From Candidatus Cloacimonadota bacterium (GTDB lineage Bacteria; Cloacimonadota; Cloacimonadia; Cloacimonadales; TCS61), in contig JAMOPB010000237.1 of assembly GCA_027064945.1 (NCBI GenBank), forward strand, positions 1 through 45,632: a DNA stretch of 45,632 bases, read 5' to 3'. The notes under the pieces were generated by a model, which saw only the letters and a list, made by a program, of their open reading frames with translations, did not search any database and was not told the DNA's origin. The translations under genes and the position numbers were made by a program. How positions within the stretch are numbered: position 1 is the first letter of the stretch; the number at the start of each line of letters is the position of its first letter. Below are positions 25,874 through 42,636 of the stretch, in pieces.

Positions 25874-26092
25874 ATGTTTATCAAAATAAATGGATTTTAT
25901 TATAATGAGGCGATTATCGCCTCATTCGGGCCAGACACAGCGGGATCTGGCCCGTGTATCAGATTCAATTTTATCGATGGCAGCAAAGCTGCCATCGAAT
26001 TTCCGTTGTCCAAATACAACGGAAATATAATGGAAGCCGAAAAGGCGCGCAACGCGCGCCTTGGACGCTTATACAAAAAATTATGCCAATAA
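25874..26092 (+). CDS. questionable 72-aa ORF coincident with a GC-rich hairpin cluster
   Basis: Good SD (AAAAGGAGAAAGA-ATG). However, codon usage (GCG/GCC/CCG/CGC/GGG) is atypical for this genome, and five perfect hairpins lie inside it. The mirror ORF on the opposite strand is also open. Confidence 0.3.
   Translation: MFIKINGFYYNEAIIASFGPDTAGSGPCIRFNFIDGSKAAIEFPLSKYNGNIMEAEKARNARLGRLYKKLCQ
25904..26062. other. cluster of five consecutive perfect hairpins in a GC-rich island (candidate structured RNA or DNA element)
   Basis: Stems: 25904-25913/25917-25926 (10 bp), 25927-25935/25946-25954 (9 bp), 25974-25984/25988-25998 (11 bp), 25999-26009/26016-26026 (11 bp), 26042-26050/26054-26062 (9 bp). 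All pairs are Watson-Crick. Confidence 0.85.
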
Positions 26093-26156
26093 AAAACGCG
26101 GTTGCCGGACCGCGAGAACAAAACCGGAGTTAAACTTGTTGTTCATTTTTTTCTTG

Positions 26157-38247: not shown

Positions 38248-39146
38248 TATTCTGCCTTTTCGATTTCTGTATCATTATTTGTTTCATCATTTTTTTCTAG
38301 CTCTTCACCAACTTGTTCTTCTGTAGCATCTCCGGCAAAATCTGGGTGTGCTTCTTTATCTACTTTATAAGGACCGTAATGAGCTACTTCGGTTTCGTCC
38401 CCATTGAGATCTGCAACTTTAACAATAACAGATAATGATAACGCTCGTACCCAGTAATCTGCATCTACTTTCATTAGCATATATAAAAATGAATCTTGTA
38501 ATGTGAAACTCATATTTATTGAATGTGAATCACTGTTTTTATCTTGATTAAGTGAAATTGATTCACATTTCATAATCGGTGTTGAGACGCATTTAGCAAA
38601 CAGATCATAGTTACTAGCATCATCTTTCATTTGAGCAAATATATTTATTGCATTATCCGCAGCAGGATCATATCCTTCAAGTATATTTTCAGGTAAATAA
38701 AGAAAATAATCGTATTCAAAATCGTAATAATATTTACCCTCATGAGGAAAATACTCACTGTAATTATGAAAAAAATCTAACAATTGCGCACCAGTTTCAA
38801 AGTTAACTGTAATATCGATACCAATATTGTACCTATTGGTTAATCCGTATATTTCAAATTTATCCAATACGCTTGCTATTGGGAAAGCGTTAGGAAATTG
38901 TATCAAATCTGCAGCATTTGTACCGACAGACATGTTTTGAGCAAGAGGATATGTAAATTGTTTTTGAATATTATTAATGTTGATAATGCCTTTTGGGAAT
39001 GGTTGCGGATTTCTGTGAAGTTTGATAGAATCAAAGGTTTTAGAATTATAATTAAAATCCCATTGGCTAATTGGTAATAATGGTGAAGCTGATTGAATAG
39101 CTGCAGCCATACCTCGCATTAAAGCATAATATTGTGTGTGTATCAT
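38247..39146 (-). CDS. hypothetical virion-type protein (299 aa), first gene of the minus-strand operon next to array R
   Basis: AAAGGACGAAGACT-ATG. GCCCCAATGATTAGCA element (39184-39199) upstream. Acidic C-terminal tail. Confidence 0.5.
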   Translation of the reverse strand: MIHTQYYALMRGMAAAIQSASPLLPISQWDFNYNSKTFDSIKLHRNPQPFPKGIININNIQKQFTYPLAQNMSVGTNAADLIQFPNAFPIASVLDKFEIYGLTNRYNIGIDITVNFETGAQLLDFFHNYSEYFPHEGKYYYDFEYDYFLYLPENILEGYDPAADNAINIFAQMKDDASNYDLFAKCVSTPIMKCESISLNQDKNSDSHSINMSFTLQDSFLYMLMKVDADYWVRALSLSVIVKVADLNGDETEVAHYGPYKVDKEAHPDFAGDATEEQVGEELEKNDETNNDTEIEKAE

Positions 39147-39183
39147 AGTCTTCGTCCTTTGATCAATTGCCTTTTATTTAAAA

Positions 39184-39199
39184 TGCTAATCATTGGGGC
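39184..39199 (-). promoter_or_regulatory. GCCCCAATSATTAGCA element upstream of 38247-39146
   Basis: The minus strand reads gaaGCCCCAATGATTAGCAttttaaataaaaggcaattgatcaaaggacgaagactATG. Confidence 0.35.
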
Positions 39200-39223
39200 T
39201 TCTCAATATTTTTATATTTTTAA

Positions 39224-39235
39224 GATAGCATACTA
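39224..39235 (+). promoter_or_regulatory. degenerate GATAG-cATAcTA motif at the left edge of array R
   Basis: taagatagcatactagaaaaca. Same orientation as the array units. Two mismatches to the motif. Confidence 0.2.
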
Positions 39236-39383
39236 GAAAACAATTCACAGTGAACCGTCCAGACCGGGATGATATCTAGAAAAAAGTTTTTCTGCATCTA
39301 GGTTCTGCCAACTGTAACAAGCTATTAGAAAGGTTGTTATTTTAAAACAACAAACTGAAAAACTAGTTTGGTCGTCTAGACTA

Positions 39384-39454
39384 GTTAGATAACTTCCTTT
39401 TGGAAGTTATCTAACAGGCCATCTCATTGTTACGACTTCATCGTAACAATGAGA
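39384..39454. repeat. double-hairpin module (array R copy 1)
   Basis: gttagataacttcc-tttt-ggaagttatctaac and tctcattgttAcga-cttca-tcgTaacaatgaga, both perfect 14-bp stems. Confidence 0.9.
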
Positions 39455-39696
39455 TCAGACCGGGATGATACCTAGAAAAAAGTTTTTCTGCATCTAGGTT
39501 CTGCCAACTGTAACAAGCTATTAGAAAGGTTGTTATTTTAAAACAGTAAACTGAAAAACTAATTTGGATGATCAGACCGGGATGATACCTAGAAAAAAGT
39601 TTTTCTGCATCTAGGTTCTGCCAACTGTAACAAGCTATTAGAAAGGTTGTTATTTTAAAACTGCAAACTGAAAAACTAGTTTGGACGATCAGACTA

Positions 39697-39767
39697 GTTA
39701 GATAACTTCCAAAAGGAAGTTATCTAACAGGCCGTCTCATTGTTGCGACTTCATCGCAACAATGAGA
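39697..39767. repeat. double-hairpin module (array R copy 2)
   Basis: gttagataacttcc-aaaa-ggaagttatctaac and tctcattgttGcga-cttca-tcgCaacaatgaga. Flanked by 8-nt direct repeats gatcagac at 39687-39694 and 39766-39773. Confidence 0.9.
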
Positions 39768-40056
39768 TCAGACCGGGATGATATCTAGAAAAAAGTTTTT
39801 CTGCATCTAGGTTCTGCCAACTGTAACAAGCTATTAGAAAGGTTGTTATTTTAAAACTGCAAACTGAAAAACTAGTTTGGACGATCAGACCGGGATGATA
39901 TCTAGAAAAAAGTTTTTCTGCATCTAGGTTCTGCCAACTGTAACAAGCTATTAGAAAGGTTGATTTTTAATATCAGATAATTTGTCAAATTTAAAAAAGA
40001 ACTGGGAGAAAATAAACACCAATTTCTATATATTCTTTAATAATTAAAATAAGTTA

Positions 40057-40067
40057 GATAGATATTA
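40057..40067 (+). promoter_or_regulatory. GATAGATATTA motif, instance 2
   Basis: agatagatattataataagaaaaataaaa, about 47 nt upstream of the rod hairpin at 40114. About 30 nt are similar to instance 1, with 2 indels. Confidence 0.35.
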
Positions 40068-40113
40068 TAATAAGAAAAATAAAAAAATAAATAAAATAAA
40101 TAAAATAATTTTG

Positions 40114-40208
40114 CCTCGAAGCTGGTTACAGAGCCTAGGGGCTGGGAGAGAGGCGACCGCGCGGCGCGTACTCTCTCAGTCTCGCGGGCTGCTGAGCCAG
40201 CTTCGAGG
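40114..40208 (+). other. 95-nt GC-rich rod-like hairpin in the 5' leader of the plus-strand block (processing site, attenuator or ncRNA candidate)
   Basis: Outer stem cctcgaagctgg/ccagcttcgagg (12 bp). Inner stem ctg..gagagag (40142-40152)/ctctctcag (40171-40179). A-rich tract upstream and ttatttatttttt downstream. Confidence 0.7.
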
Positions 40209-40240
40209 GATCGTTATTTATTTTTTAAAGGAGAAAAAAA

Positions 40241-40372
40241 ATGAAAATTAAAAAACGCGATTGGAATATCGTAGCCATAGCTCGTGGCGAAATTAATGCA
40301 CGCCCAAAAGTAGTGCATTCTAAGAAAAAATATTCACGCAAATTAAAACATAAAAAGCGTGAATATTTCTAA
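40241..40372 (+). CDS. 43-aa highly basic peptide (MKIKKRDWNIVAIARGEINARPKVVHSKKKYSRKLKHKKREYF), speculative ArfA-like tail
   Basis: Not in the ORF track because it is under 60 aa. AAAGGAG 8 nt upstream of ATG 40241. The C-terminal K/R tail resembles KGKGSYxRKxKH of ArfA-type ribosome rescue factors (from memory). Internal 7-bp hairpin at 40295-40319. Confidence 0.4.
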   Translation: MKIKKRDWNIVAIARGEINARPKVVHSKKKYSRKLKHKKREYF

Positions 40373-40482
40373 TTTCTATTTTAAAATTTATCTTTTAAGA
40401 TTAATATATAGAAATTATATATTGAAGGAGACCAGTATTTTGGCTCCAAAAAACAAAAAAACAAATCAAAAAAGGAGAACAC

Positions 40483-40968
40483 ATGAACGGTTTAACTTAC
40501 AAACAATGGAATGAAAGTATCAGAAACATTTTAAATAAATATCCGAAGTTGGTAACAGAATTGAAATTACCAAATACGGTAATGCTACAGTTCAGAAAAG
40601 TTGAATCTAAAAAATTAACAATCGATACTTTTTCAAAATTTATAGAAGGGTTAGGATTAAGTTTCGAGATTGTTATCAAAGATAAAGATGGAAACACTGT
40701 AGATACAACTAAACTTGAAAACTTAGCTGCAGACAAAGTTGAAAAAACGAAAAAAGAAACCCTTGCAACCATTGCAGGTGTTTCTACTGTTTCAAAAAAA
40801 GAAGGAAATAACACGTCTGCGCATGTTACAATGCCAGATGCAGATGATGTATTACCAGCAACTGGAGAAGTTAAAATTGGAGAATCTGTGTCTCAAAGCG
40901 AGAATGATTCAGCGCTTGCTGCGTCACCAGAGGTAGAAGTAGATCTCCAAGCAATATTCGGCAACTGA
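40483..40968 (+). CDS. hypothetical protein, possible HTH-like N-terminal domain with acidic tail
   Basis: AAAAGGAGAACAC-ATG. TIDTFSKFIEGLGLSFEIVIKD resembles the end of an XRE-type HTH. Followed by a strong terminator. Confidence 0.45.
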   Translation: MNGLTYKQWNESIRNILNKYPKLVTELKLPNTVMLQFRKVESKKLTIDTFSKFIEGLGLSFEIVIKDKDGNTVDTTKLENLAADKVEKTKKETLATIAGVSTVSKKEGNNTSAHVTMPDADDVLPATGEVKIGESVSQSENDSALAASPEVEVDLQAIFGN

Positions 40969-41007
40969 GTCTAGACCACTTGTGGTCTAGACTCTTTTTG
41001 TTCTTTT
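40967..41007 (+). terminator. intrinsic terminator after 40483-40968
   Basis: 12-bp stem gagtctagacca/tggtctagactc with loop cttg, followed by tttttgttctttt. Confidence 0.85.
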
Positions 41008-41110
41008 AGGGTTTAAATATAGAAATATAATTGGTGTTTGCAAATTACTTATTCATGAGTGTTCATAAGTGGTCAGTGTGTTTTGCTACTCTTTTGAAAA
41101 GTTCGACGAA

Positions 41111-41150
41111 AGCAAGAGAATAGTTATCTCTTGCTTTTTTGCGTTTTTTT
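41111..41150 (+). terminator. second intrinsic terminator about 105 nt downstream
   Basis: 9-bp stem agcaagaga/tctcttgct with loop atagtta, followed by ttttttgcgttttttt. Confidence 0.75.
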
Positions 41151-41295
41151 CAATATAATTAAATTCTTCAAAACCTTCGATTGTTAAATTATTTGTGTGT
41201 GAATTGTGGTTAAAAATTTCACAAAGATGTGCGAGCGAGTAGAAGCGCGCGGCTAATAATTAGCCAAAAAGAAAAAAAATTCAAAAAGGAAATTA

Positions 41296-42636
41296 ATGAG
41301 TTTAAAAATTGATTTTTCCCTTTACGAGATCGATCTTCCTGTAGTGACTTCTTCCAAAATTTTTGCAAATAATAAAAATGAGTATCATGAAGAAGGATTA
41401 TATTCGCAGAAAATATTTGGACCGGTTAAAAATTACGAATGCAAATGTGGTAAGTTAAAAGGTAAATATTATGCAGGTCAAAGATGTGAAGATTGCGGAG
41501 TGCTTTGTGATAGTAATGATTTGCGAATGAAAACATTTGCGCAAATAAATTTACCATCTGATATCTGGGTTGTATTTCCACCTTTAAAACATGTGTTACA
41601 TAAGATCTTTAGCAAAAGAGCAGTTGATAAGATCATGACTTTTGATCCGCATGTGTATGAAGTACATGACTATTTTATATACGATTTAAATGATGCAACT
41701 CTTGTTAATGTGAATAATTTGATAAATGAGGATGAAATTAAAGCAAAAATTTCAGATCAAGCAAAAGAAGAACTGAATATTGATGAACTAGAAAAACTGA
41801 GAGCAGAATTTGTTAATAAATGGGTTTCTGAAAATCTTAATCCAGAGAGGTACTTAATTGATTTTAAAATTTATTCTATAATAAATCTGAAACATTTATT
41901 TGACTATTTGTATGAAAATCATTGGGAAATATTTGAGAAGAAACAAGTTGGTAATCGCGATATAGTTAAATTTGCTTTTGTGAATAAAATACCAGTGACT
42001 CCACCAGATACAAGACCTGTTATTAAGATAGCAAAAAACAGATTTAGTGTTAATGATATTACTAAATCCTATAGTGAAATTTTGAAAAATCTTGAACATA
42101 AATTCATGGATGATATTTATTTACAGATACAAGATGAAACCGAGCGTAATATATATCTTGCAAATGCTGCTAAAAAATTCCAGCGTTCAGTTGACGATAT
42201 TTATAAATTCGCACAAGAAAATCAGCTAGGCGATAAAGAATCCATTTTAAGAAACTCTATTCTTGGAAAAACAGTTGAATTTAGTGGAAGAACTGTCGTA
42301 ACATGCGGTGCAAATGTTCCACCTTATATGATCTCAATTCCTAGAGAATCTGCAAAAGTATTGTTTATTCTCGAAGTGCTAAATTATCTTGTAAATAATG
42401 ATAATGATATTTTAGATATTGATGATATTGCTTCTTTAATGCAATTAATTACGAACAACATTGAGGATGCAGAATTAAAAATTGATGATGATGTATTTGA
42501 TGAAATTTATCAGAAAATTAGACCGCAGCTGCGTGTTATGTTTGAAAGACCTCCAACATTGTTTATGTATAATGACAGCACATTTATTCTAGATGAGCTA
42601 TTTGAAAATAAATTTAAAATGAAGGAAGAACTATGA
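41296..42636 (+). CDS. phage multisubunit RNA polymerase beta-prime, N-terminal half
   Basis: IFGPVKNYECKCGKLKGKYYAGQRCEDCGVLC (beta-prime zinc motif), IPVTPPDTRPV, LRNSILGKTVEFSGRTVV (NLLGKRVDYSGRSV equivalent). It ends at ERPPTLFMYNDSTFILDELFENK ([22 protein letters not shown] equivalent). Confidence 0.9.
   Translation: MSLKIDFSLYEIDLPVVTSSKIFANNKNEYHEEGLYSQKIFGPVKNYECKCGKLKGKYYAGQRCEDCGVLCDSNDLRMKTFAQINLPSDIWVVFPPLKHVLHKIFSKRAVDKIMTFDPHVYEVHDYFIYDLNDATLVNVNNLINEDEIKAKISDQAKEELNIDELEKLRAEFVNKWVSENLNPERYLIDFKIYSIINLKHLFDYLYENHWEIFEKKQVGNRDIVKFAFVNKIPVTPPDTRPVIKIAKNRFSVNDITKSYSEILKNLEHKFMDDIYLQIQDETERNIYLANAAKKFQRSVDDIYKFAQENQLGDKESILRNSILGKTVEFSGRTVVTCGANVPPYMISIPRESAKVLFILEVLNYLVNNDNDILDIDDIASLMQLITNNIEDAELKIDDDVFDEIYQKIRPQLRVMFERPPTLFMYNDSTFILDELFENKFKMKEEL

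Follow-up and report, generated by a model that had tools for sequence, protein, structure and literature searches.

A conserved, covarying GC-rich rod beside the RNA polymerase genes of uncultured giant phages, a probable early small RNA

The window analysed here is the whole of a 45.6-kb contig (45,632 nucleotides; C237) from a 2.43-Mb metagenome-assembled genome (MAG) of 493 contigs. A large terminase and split beta/beta-prime-like RNA polymerase (RNAP) pieces among its genes mark the window as part of the genome of an uncultured jumbo-type phage, sorted into the same bin as a bacterial genome; the MAG, which is 89% complete, is assigned as the phage host from binning only. A leftward structural block ends at position 39146 and is separated by a 1.3-kb divergent gap from a rightward early block, in the order 43-aa peptide, 161-aa protein and N-terminal part of beta-prime (beta-prime N-part). 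Within this gap sits a GC-rich rod, and the cumulative GC skew turns at the divergent junction beside it. Upstream of the rod are five direct repeats of 94 nt each (39257–39976; 94–100% identical), arranged as a 313-nt super-repeat with spacers that hold two perfect 14–15-bp hairpins, and a related motif, TGCATCT(A/G)AGGT, is found in the same gap of the relative L015 and, inverted, in L017. Elsewhere in the window, positions 25900–26120, between called minus-strand ORFs, are GC-enriched (~0.55 in a contig of 32% GC) and contain only short overlapping ORFs on both strands. The features around the rod are as follows.

40021–40034, plus strand: upstream half, AATTTCTATATATT, of the palindromic early-promoter architecture; inverted repeat with 40403–40416
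40044–40071, plus strand: predicted rod promoter, TTAAAA, 16 nt, TATAAT; the top sigma-70-like match of the region (10/12)
40078–40113, plus strand: A-rich 5' leader, which pairs with the U-rich trailer and lengthens the rod
40114–40208, plus strand: GC-rich rod RNA of 95 nt, defined by folding, alignment and pairing counts
40148–40173, plus strand: conserved apical module of 26 nt, GAGAGGCGACCGCGCGGCGCGUACUC, near-invariant among relatives at 45–83% beta-prime N-part identity
40157–40164, plus strand: palindromic apex, CCGCGCGG, inside the apical module
40209–40226, plus strand: U-rich trailer and T-run, the presumed RNA 3' end (partial terminator)
40227–40372, plus strand: ribosome-binding site (aaaggag) and ORF of the 43-aa basic peptide (40241–40372)
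40483–40968, plus strand: 161-aa early protein with an XRE-like helix-turn-helix (HTH) N-terminal domain, a neighbour of the rod in all relatives

A preliminary description of this DNA, made from its letters, had pointed to a GC-rich 95-nt segment with a nearly continuous stem, and this account is upheld. At 40114–40208 the outer stem pairs cctcgaagctgg with ccagcttcgagg, the inner stem pairs gagagag with ctctctc, and the apex is cgcg, with an A-rich tract ahead of the rod and ttatttatttttt (40214–40226) behind it. As plus-strand RNA the segment folds into one rod with a minimum free energy (MFE) of −69 kcal/mol, and this structure makes up 77% of the ensemble, compared to a mean of −40.6 kcal/mol in shuffled sequences (z = −7.96; none of 200 shuffles fold as well) and −48.3 kcal/mol for the minus strand. 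The rod is kept when the leader and trailer are included (40078–40262; z = −9.0), a fold in which the ribosome-binding site downstream is unpaired. With a GC content of 0.70 in 80 nt, the rod is also the top GC island of the window, for which 80-nt stretches have a mean of 0.32 and a standard deviation of 0.07. GC islands in AT-rich genomes are reportedly a classic mark of structural RNA genes (Klein, Misulovin and Eddy 2002). The rod contains neither a start codon nor an ORF. It had further been described as much longer than the other terminators, and this holds where the comparison was made, nearby terminator-like hairpins having 7–12 pairs.

Relatives of the phage were collected by searching metagenome protein collections with the beta-prime N-part (446 aa), which returned 18 relatives whose contigs were examined. 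Including the window, full rods occur as nine copies in eight phages, all of them uncultured giant vent phages: the window, L034, L021, L015 (two tandem paralogues), L017, L019, L032 (same as L029 and L031) and L033 (same as L026). All rods lie on the strand of the RNAP genes, and a homologous rod was found in every relative between 83% and 45% beta-prime N-part identity with enough upstream sequence. The preliminary description had named absence or lack of structure in close relatives as grounds for refutation, and the outcome was the opposite, the relatives having homologous rods that covary; in the window the model match spans 40109–40213 on the plus strand. More distant relatives (L028, L037 and L030; 34%, 31% and 29% identity, respectively) gave no covariance model match even with filters off. 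At the same relative position and behind the same kind of promoter, L037 carries a rod that is unrelated in sequence.

Four further rods are truncated, each by the start of an independent metagenome contig (L013, L024, L023 and L009, the last same as L022), with L024 starting at the exact centre of the apex palindrome. Most likely the assembler breaks at the strong inverted repeat or at the repeats upstream. The four contig starts had raised the idea of a hairpin telomere or protelomerase site, which was rejected: the window and the contigs of seven relatives span the rod, and L013 runs 13 nt past the dyad with an asymmetric 5' arm and has no fold-back copy. Tandem arrangements were also observed. 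In L034, positions 330–405 and 470–600 add units made up of a promoter, a hairpin and a T-run, arranged in tandem with the rod and comprising two unrelated rods, one of 131 nt and −55 kcal/mol, and L015 holds at 397–500 a diverged paralogue of the rod that is without the internal-loop motif. Given these extra units, the early gap of the rod-bearing phages looks like a small-RNA gene cluster.

The nine distinct rods, which are related by descent, were aligned with MAFFT from sequence alone and a consensus was derived with RNAalifold. The consensus predicts 40 pairs, 35 of which show at least one double compensatory change. Across the alignment 85.8% of the paired cells can pair, compared to 63.6% in column shuffles (none of 500 reach the observed value) and only 36–45% when the 3' partner column is slid by 1–3 positions, while the covariation score is 0.72 compared to 0.28 in the shuffles and 0.13–0.24 with the slid partner. 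Conservation with compensatory changes among the relatives places the structure of the rod far beyond chance. Template-switch (quasi-palindrome) correction can inflate covariation in a DNA inverted repeat. Concerning the strand, G-U pairs outnumber A-C pairs by 53 to 13 (binomial p = 7e-7), with the G-U excess present in eight of the nine sequences, and all nine copies fold better on the plus strand, by an MFE advantage of 15–27 kcal/mol. The structure is therefore selected on the plus strand, as a transcript or, less likely, as single-stranded plus-strand DNA.

While the helix varies, its apical end is held nearly constant. Alignment of the relatives gives the apical consensus 5'-GAGA-R-GYN-(A/U)-CC-NNNN-GG-NRC-R-Y-A-CYC, composed of an internal loop (5'-A-R / 5'-R-Y-A), a bulged A/U, a CC/GG clamp and a palindromic tetraloop. 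The R-R mismatch changes jointly, being either A-A or G-G, and the bulged A/U is retained. For the internal loop, a Loop-E/sarcin-ricin motif and a K-turn were compared by hand and rejected, as the register fits neither consensus. The tetraloop varies by lineage (GCGC, GUAC, AGCU and UCGA, with CCUAGG in L033) and is always a palindrome, and at the DNA level every variant of the apex 8-mer is perfectly palindromic; the chance of retaining a palindrome is ~1/16 per independent change, and there have been three or four such changes. RNA dimerisation, a symmetric site at the level of DNA or template-switch mutation in a quasi-palindrome are possible sources of this constraint, and the perfection of the palindrome hints at some constraint at the DNA or dimer level. 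The combination of a variable, covarying helix with an invariant, asymmetric loop module is the pattern of a stable scaffold that carries a recognition site for a protein.

The apex palindrome is also where a role at the level of DNA has to be weighed, in which the plus strand would fold as single-stranded DNA, or the duplex as a cruciform, in a replication origin, with the rod acting as a priming signal beside the iteron-like 94-nt repeats, or in which the rod would be an operator for an XRE-like dimer. Strand-specific rods are known as the single-strand origins of rolling-circle plasmids. The position of the rod at the divergent junction, beside the five-copy array and where the cumulative GC skew turns, is consistent with an origin, and the palindromic 8-mer and an XRE-like HTH gene that is always adjacent would suit an operator. 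This position is not a constant one, however, since in L032, L019 and L017 the rod is 1–5 genes away from the divergent junction and the repeats, and everywhere it is framed exactly by a promoter and a U-run. Moreover, a bulged A two bases off the apex and other asymmetries are conserved, which a symmetric site has no need of, and an operator does not require 40 covarying pairs. A DNA-level role is, on this balance, very unlikely.

The signals that frame the rod are predicted from the sequence. Ahead of it, the promoter (−10 box, 40066–40071) contains a conserved phage motif, TAGATATTATA, at 40059–40069. By regular-expression search this motif lies 29–60 nt ahead of seven of the nine rods, the other two being preceded by its slight variants catatagatataatc and gatagagaaataataag, and the window contains one other intergenic copy, at 40410, ahead of the 161-aa gene. 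As the motif also drives the RNAP subunit genes, these promoters would be early ones, recognised either by the polymerase of the host or by an enzyme of the virion. Each early promoter was also seen to be a palindromic pair, with TTTCTATAT ~25–30 nt upstream of ATATAGA(A/T)AT(T/A)ATA; such pairs occur in the window at 40021–40034/40058–40071 and 40365–40379/40403–40422, and the pairing of TTTCTATAT with ATATAGA precedes promoters in relatives as well (L017, 5770–5800; L024, 70–125; L032, 5060–5112). It is plausible that the pair is an operator for a dimeric regulator, for example the neighbouring XRE-like protein. Transcription would start near 40078.

Behind the rod, a T-run is present in all nine full copies. 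In several of them the U-run is 6–12 nt from the GC-rich stem, with the gap bridged by A-U pairs, and termination may for this reason be weak; a scan with a terminator consensus did not call the rod. Six relatives (L021, L013, L034, L015, L017 and L024) have a new promoter between the T-run and the next gene, and in these, with its own promoter, a U-run and a fresh promoter to follow, the rod is predicted to be a separate short transcription unit. The window, L008/L009, L019 and L033 have no promoter separating the U-run from the ORF behind it. The placement of the rod in the leader of the downstream genes, as first proposed, consequently applies to the window and these relatives and fails in most others. 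Several sequence features expected of a small-RNA gene were found, namely a predicted promoter upstream, a 3' T-run in nine of nine copies, no internal ORF and covariation on the plus strand.

These flanking signals bear on the possibility that the rod is purely a terminator, insulator or attenuator, which would stop transcription in both directions, at the boundary where the repeat array or late block meets the early RNAP block, or would gate read-through into the genes downstream. The symmetry of A-tract, hairpin and U-tract is typical of bidirectional terminators, the T-run follows every copy, and in four lineages the ORF downstream of the rod has no promoter. For a mere insulator it would be odd that every copy has a dedicated promoter ~40 nt ahead of it, and 42 pairs and a conserved apical module are superfluous for a function that ordinary local terminators perform with 7–12 pairs. 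Attenuation would in addition call for a competing anti-terminator fold and a sequestered ribosome-binding site, of which the former was not found, the MFE structure holding 77% of the ensemble, and the latter is contradicted by the fold. Such a role on its own is quite unlikely, while control by read-through may apply to the ORF that follows the rod in the window and the other relatives lacking a promoter there.

The same arrangement of promoters bears on a second proposal, that the rod is a processing or stability element cut by host RNase III, cleavage of which would separate or stabilise early transcripts or free the mRNA of the basic peptide, in the manner of the T7 R sites and the lambda N leader. 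The duplex, of ~42 pairs, is imperfect, has conserved bulges and exceeds the length of dsRNA associated with RNase III sites (at least ~20 bp). In the window, L008/L009, L019 and L033 it occupies the leader of the ORF that follows, with no intervening promoter. With a duplex of this length and rnc encoded in the MAG, cleavage is plausible, though the MAG is the host on the basis of binning only. In most relatives, however, the succession of own promoter, U-run and new promoter leaves nothing to separate, and the rod does not lie between the cistrons of one polycistronic transcript, as sites of the T7 type do. RNase III also needs no sequence-specific apex, and the 26-nt module is near-invariant nonetheless. 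RNase III processing is thereby rendered unlikely as the main function of the rod.

Among the early genes adjoining the rod, the 43-aa ORF is rich in lysine and arginine, has a strong ribosome-binding site and begins directly past the U-run. As this ORF is without a promoter of its own, its expression is predicted to depend on read-through of the rod. A 39-aa homologue has the same place and arrangement in L008/L009, and in the window, L008/L009, L019 and L033 alike the ORF after the rod encodes a very basic small protein. Matches of the 43-aa peptide to DUF7230 and phrog_18092 are weak and sub-threshold, and no mention of DUF7230 was found in the literature. An ArfA-like identity of the peptide was considered and rejected, Pfam giving the sub-threshold DUF7230 alone and no match to ArfA. 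A 12-bp hairpin (40328–40339/40357–40368) overlaps the last codons of the ORF.

The 161-aa gene always adjoins the rod, on either side. Its N-terminal domain is confidently modelled and has weak but consistent Foldseek matches to HipB, HigA and C.Esp1396I (E 0.02–0.1); the acidic tail is disordered, an IDLSxIFG motif is conserved at the C-terminus, and the protein has no Pfam match. Based on the modelled fold, the protein is a candidate regulator of the shared palindromic promoters, and a functional link between it and the rod RNA is speculative. Past this gene, the segment 41014–41150 contains another promoter-like motif, ATAGAAATATAAT, and then an ORF-free stretch of ~110 nt closed by a strong terminator (41108–41138) and T-run. 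This unit may encode an additional small RNA or serve as a leader ahead of the beta-prime gene. Early mRNAs of the phage group were further observed to open with a short GC-rich hairpin located right after the promoter and ahead of the ribosome-binding site (window, 40427–40447; L021, 352–368; L015, ~805–825; L019, 4100–4125), which may be a 5' stabiliser.

Searches of RNA and genome collections placed the rod outside the described families. Rfam 15 at gathering thresholds matched nothing in the window; on the rod itself, at E up to 10, only chance-level matches were returned (e.g., MIR844 with 21.9 bits compared to 70), with a freshwater-2 match confined to the ribosome-binding-site tail and not the rod, and the rods of seven relatives had no match at E up to 1. 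No tRNA or tmRNA was detected. The INPHARED phage genomes gave no match to a query of 39100–41300 in distant mode. IMG/VR returned no relative to a single-protein query, one distant relative (29%), which is without a rod, to an alignment query, and no match to two DNA patterns of the rod, while a beta-prime alignment query found none in GTDB genome contigs.

Several cellular identities were considered and rejected. The covariance model detects the window copy alone within the MAG and has no match in 61 further genomes of the MAG family, which is at odds with a cellular RNA and restricts the rod to phages. For the SRP (4.5S) RNA or a mimic of it, RF00169 matches C68:1313–1412 only within the MAG, and the alignment of the rod with the host SRP RNA is trivial. 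A CRISPR-repeat mimic was set aside as no CRISPR-DR family matches the rod and neither BLAST nor the covariance model finds a similar sequence elsewhere in the MAG, which is 89% complete and is linked to the phage by binning.

The preliminary description had offered an RNase III site, an attenuator and a stable non-coding RNA side by side, and it is the last of these that the comparative data favour. The rod is probably a discrete early small RNA of the phage that binds a protein, or acts as a decoy for one, through its apical module. Transcription would start a few bases past the early promoter, and the polymerase would cross the A-rich leader and the 95-nt rod and mostly stop at the U-run (40214–40226), yielding a small RNA of ~150 nt in the window. 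The long imperfect helix with its G-U pairs should make this RNA very stable, and the 26-nt apical module would be its functional end, most likely recognised by a host or phage protein. Since almost no bases are left unpaired, action by protein binding or as a decoy is suggested rather than antisense pairing. In lineages without a promoter past the U-run, including the window, the fraction of transcripts that reads through would express the gene of the small basic protein. The proposed readings of the rod are not mutually exclusive.

A more far-reaching version of the decoy proposal, which is conceivable and at present doubtful, is that the rod represents a new class of regulatory or decoy RNA, an early, nuclease-resistant dsRNA with an apex that captures a specific host protein, perhaps as a symmetric dimer. 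The captured protein could be, for example, RNA polymerase, an enzyme that binds dsRNA such as RNase III, or a defence protein that senses RNA. If true, the capture of a host protein would make the rod a bacterial-virus counterpart of adenovirus VA RNA.

The small RNAs of lytic and giant phages are barely catalogued, and hardly any are supported by covariation or understood in mechanism. The rod adds a family from a clade of jumbo-type phages that is uncultured and comes from metagenomes, cleanly defined by nine copies, 35 covarying pairs, an invariant module resembling a protein site and predicted promoter and terminator signals. It can enter the RNA family databases, and synthesis of the RNA permits assays of binding, cleavage and dimerisation without phage culture. 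As several metagenome assemblies break inside the rod, RNAs of this type are under-represented in assembled viral contigs.

Among known systems, the closest in kind are the small RNAs of the jumbo phages 201phi2-1 and phiKZ, for which ONT-cappable-seq identified 5'UTR-derived and intergenic sRNAs of unknown function with a terminator that closely follows the transcription start; related phages share the position and 2D structure of at least one of these sRNAs (PMC11512511). Like the rod, these are short units, with less than 250 nt from start to terminator, in giant phages with their own multisubunit RNAP (PMC11512511). In contrast to the rod, they belong to Pseudomonas phages, were found by transcriptomics and have no sequence relation to it; the rod is defined by comparative structure only and is a single GC-rich structure of 42 pairs with an invariant apical module. 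The rod also adjoins the RNAP genes and not a tail gene. Phage sRNAs known so far act mostly by base pairing (PMC12197685).

Other long structured RNAs share single traits with the rod. The T7 R0.3 and R0.5 sites and the lambda N-leader and sib elements likewise belong to early phage RNA and form long, imperfect hairpins that contain internal loops; the T7 RNase III sites, however, lie between the cistrons of one long transcript and share structure without a conserved apical sequence, whereas the rod has its own predicted promoter and U-run. Like HK022 put, the rod is a structured RNA just past an early promoter, and like 6S RNA it is rod-shaped, with 6S binding RNAP and the rod adjoining the RNAP genes. 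HK022 put consists of two stem-loops that suppress terminators, where the rod instead carries a terminator-like U-run, and 6S RNA needs a large central bubble, which the rod lacks along with any Rfam match. The ever-palindromic apex recalls the phi29 pRNA and the HIV-1 DIS, in which the loop is constrained for intermolecular pairing, but a 4-nt loop with a CC/GG clamp makes a poor kissing loop, and the rod has no packaging context, the terminase being 22 kb away.

By analogy, the function favoured for the rod would be that of a decoy in the manner of adenovirus VA RNA I and the EBV EBERs, which are ~150 nt in length, mostly double-stranded, expressed from their own promoter and bind host proteins. 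These RNAs are eukaryotic and transcribed by Pol III and have no homology to the rod. The rod constitutes a previously undescribed RNA family of the general jumbo-phage sRNA kind, to which the rod shape, the invariant apex and the palindromic loop are peculiar.
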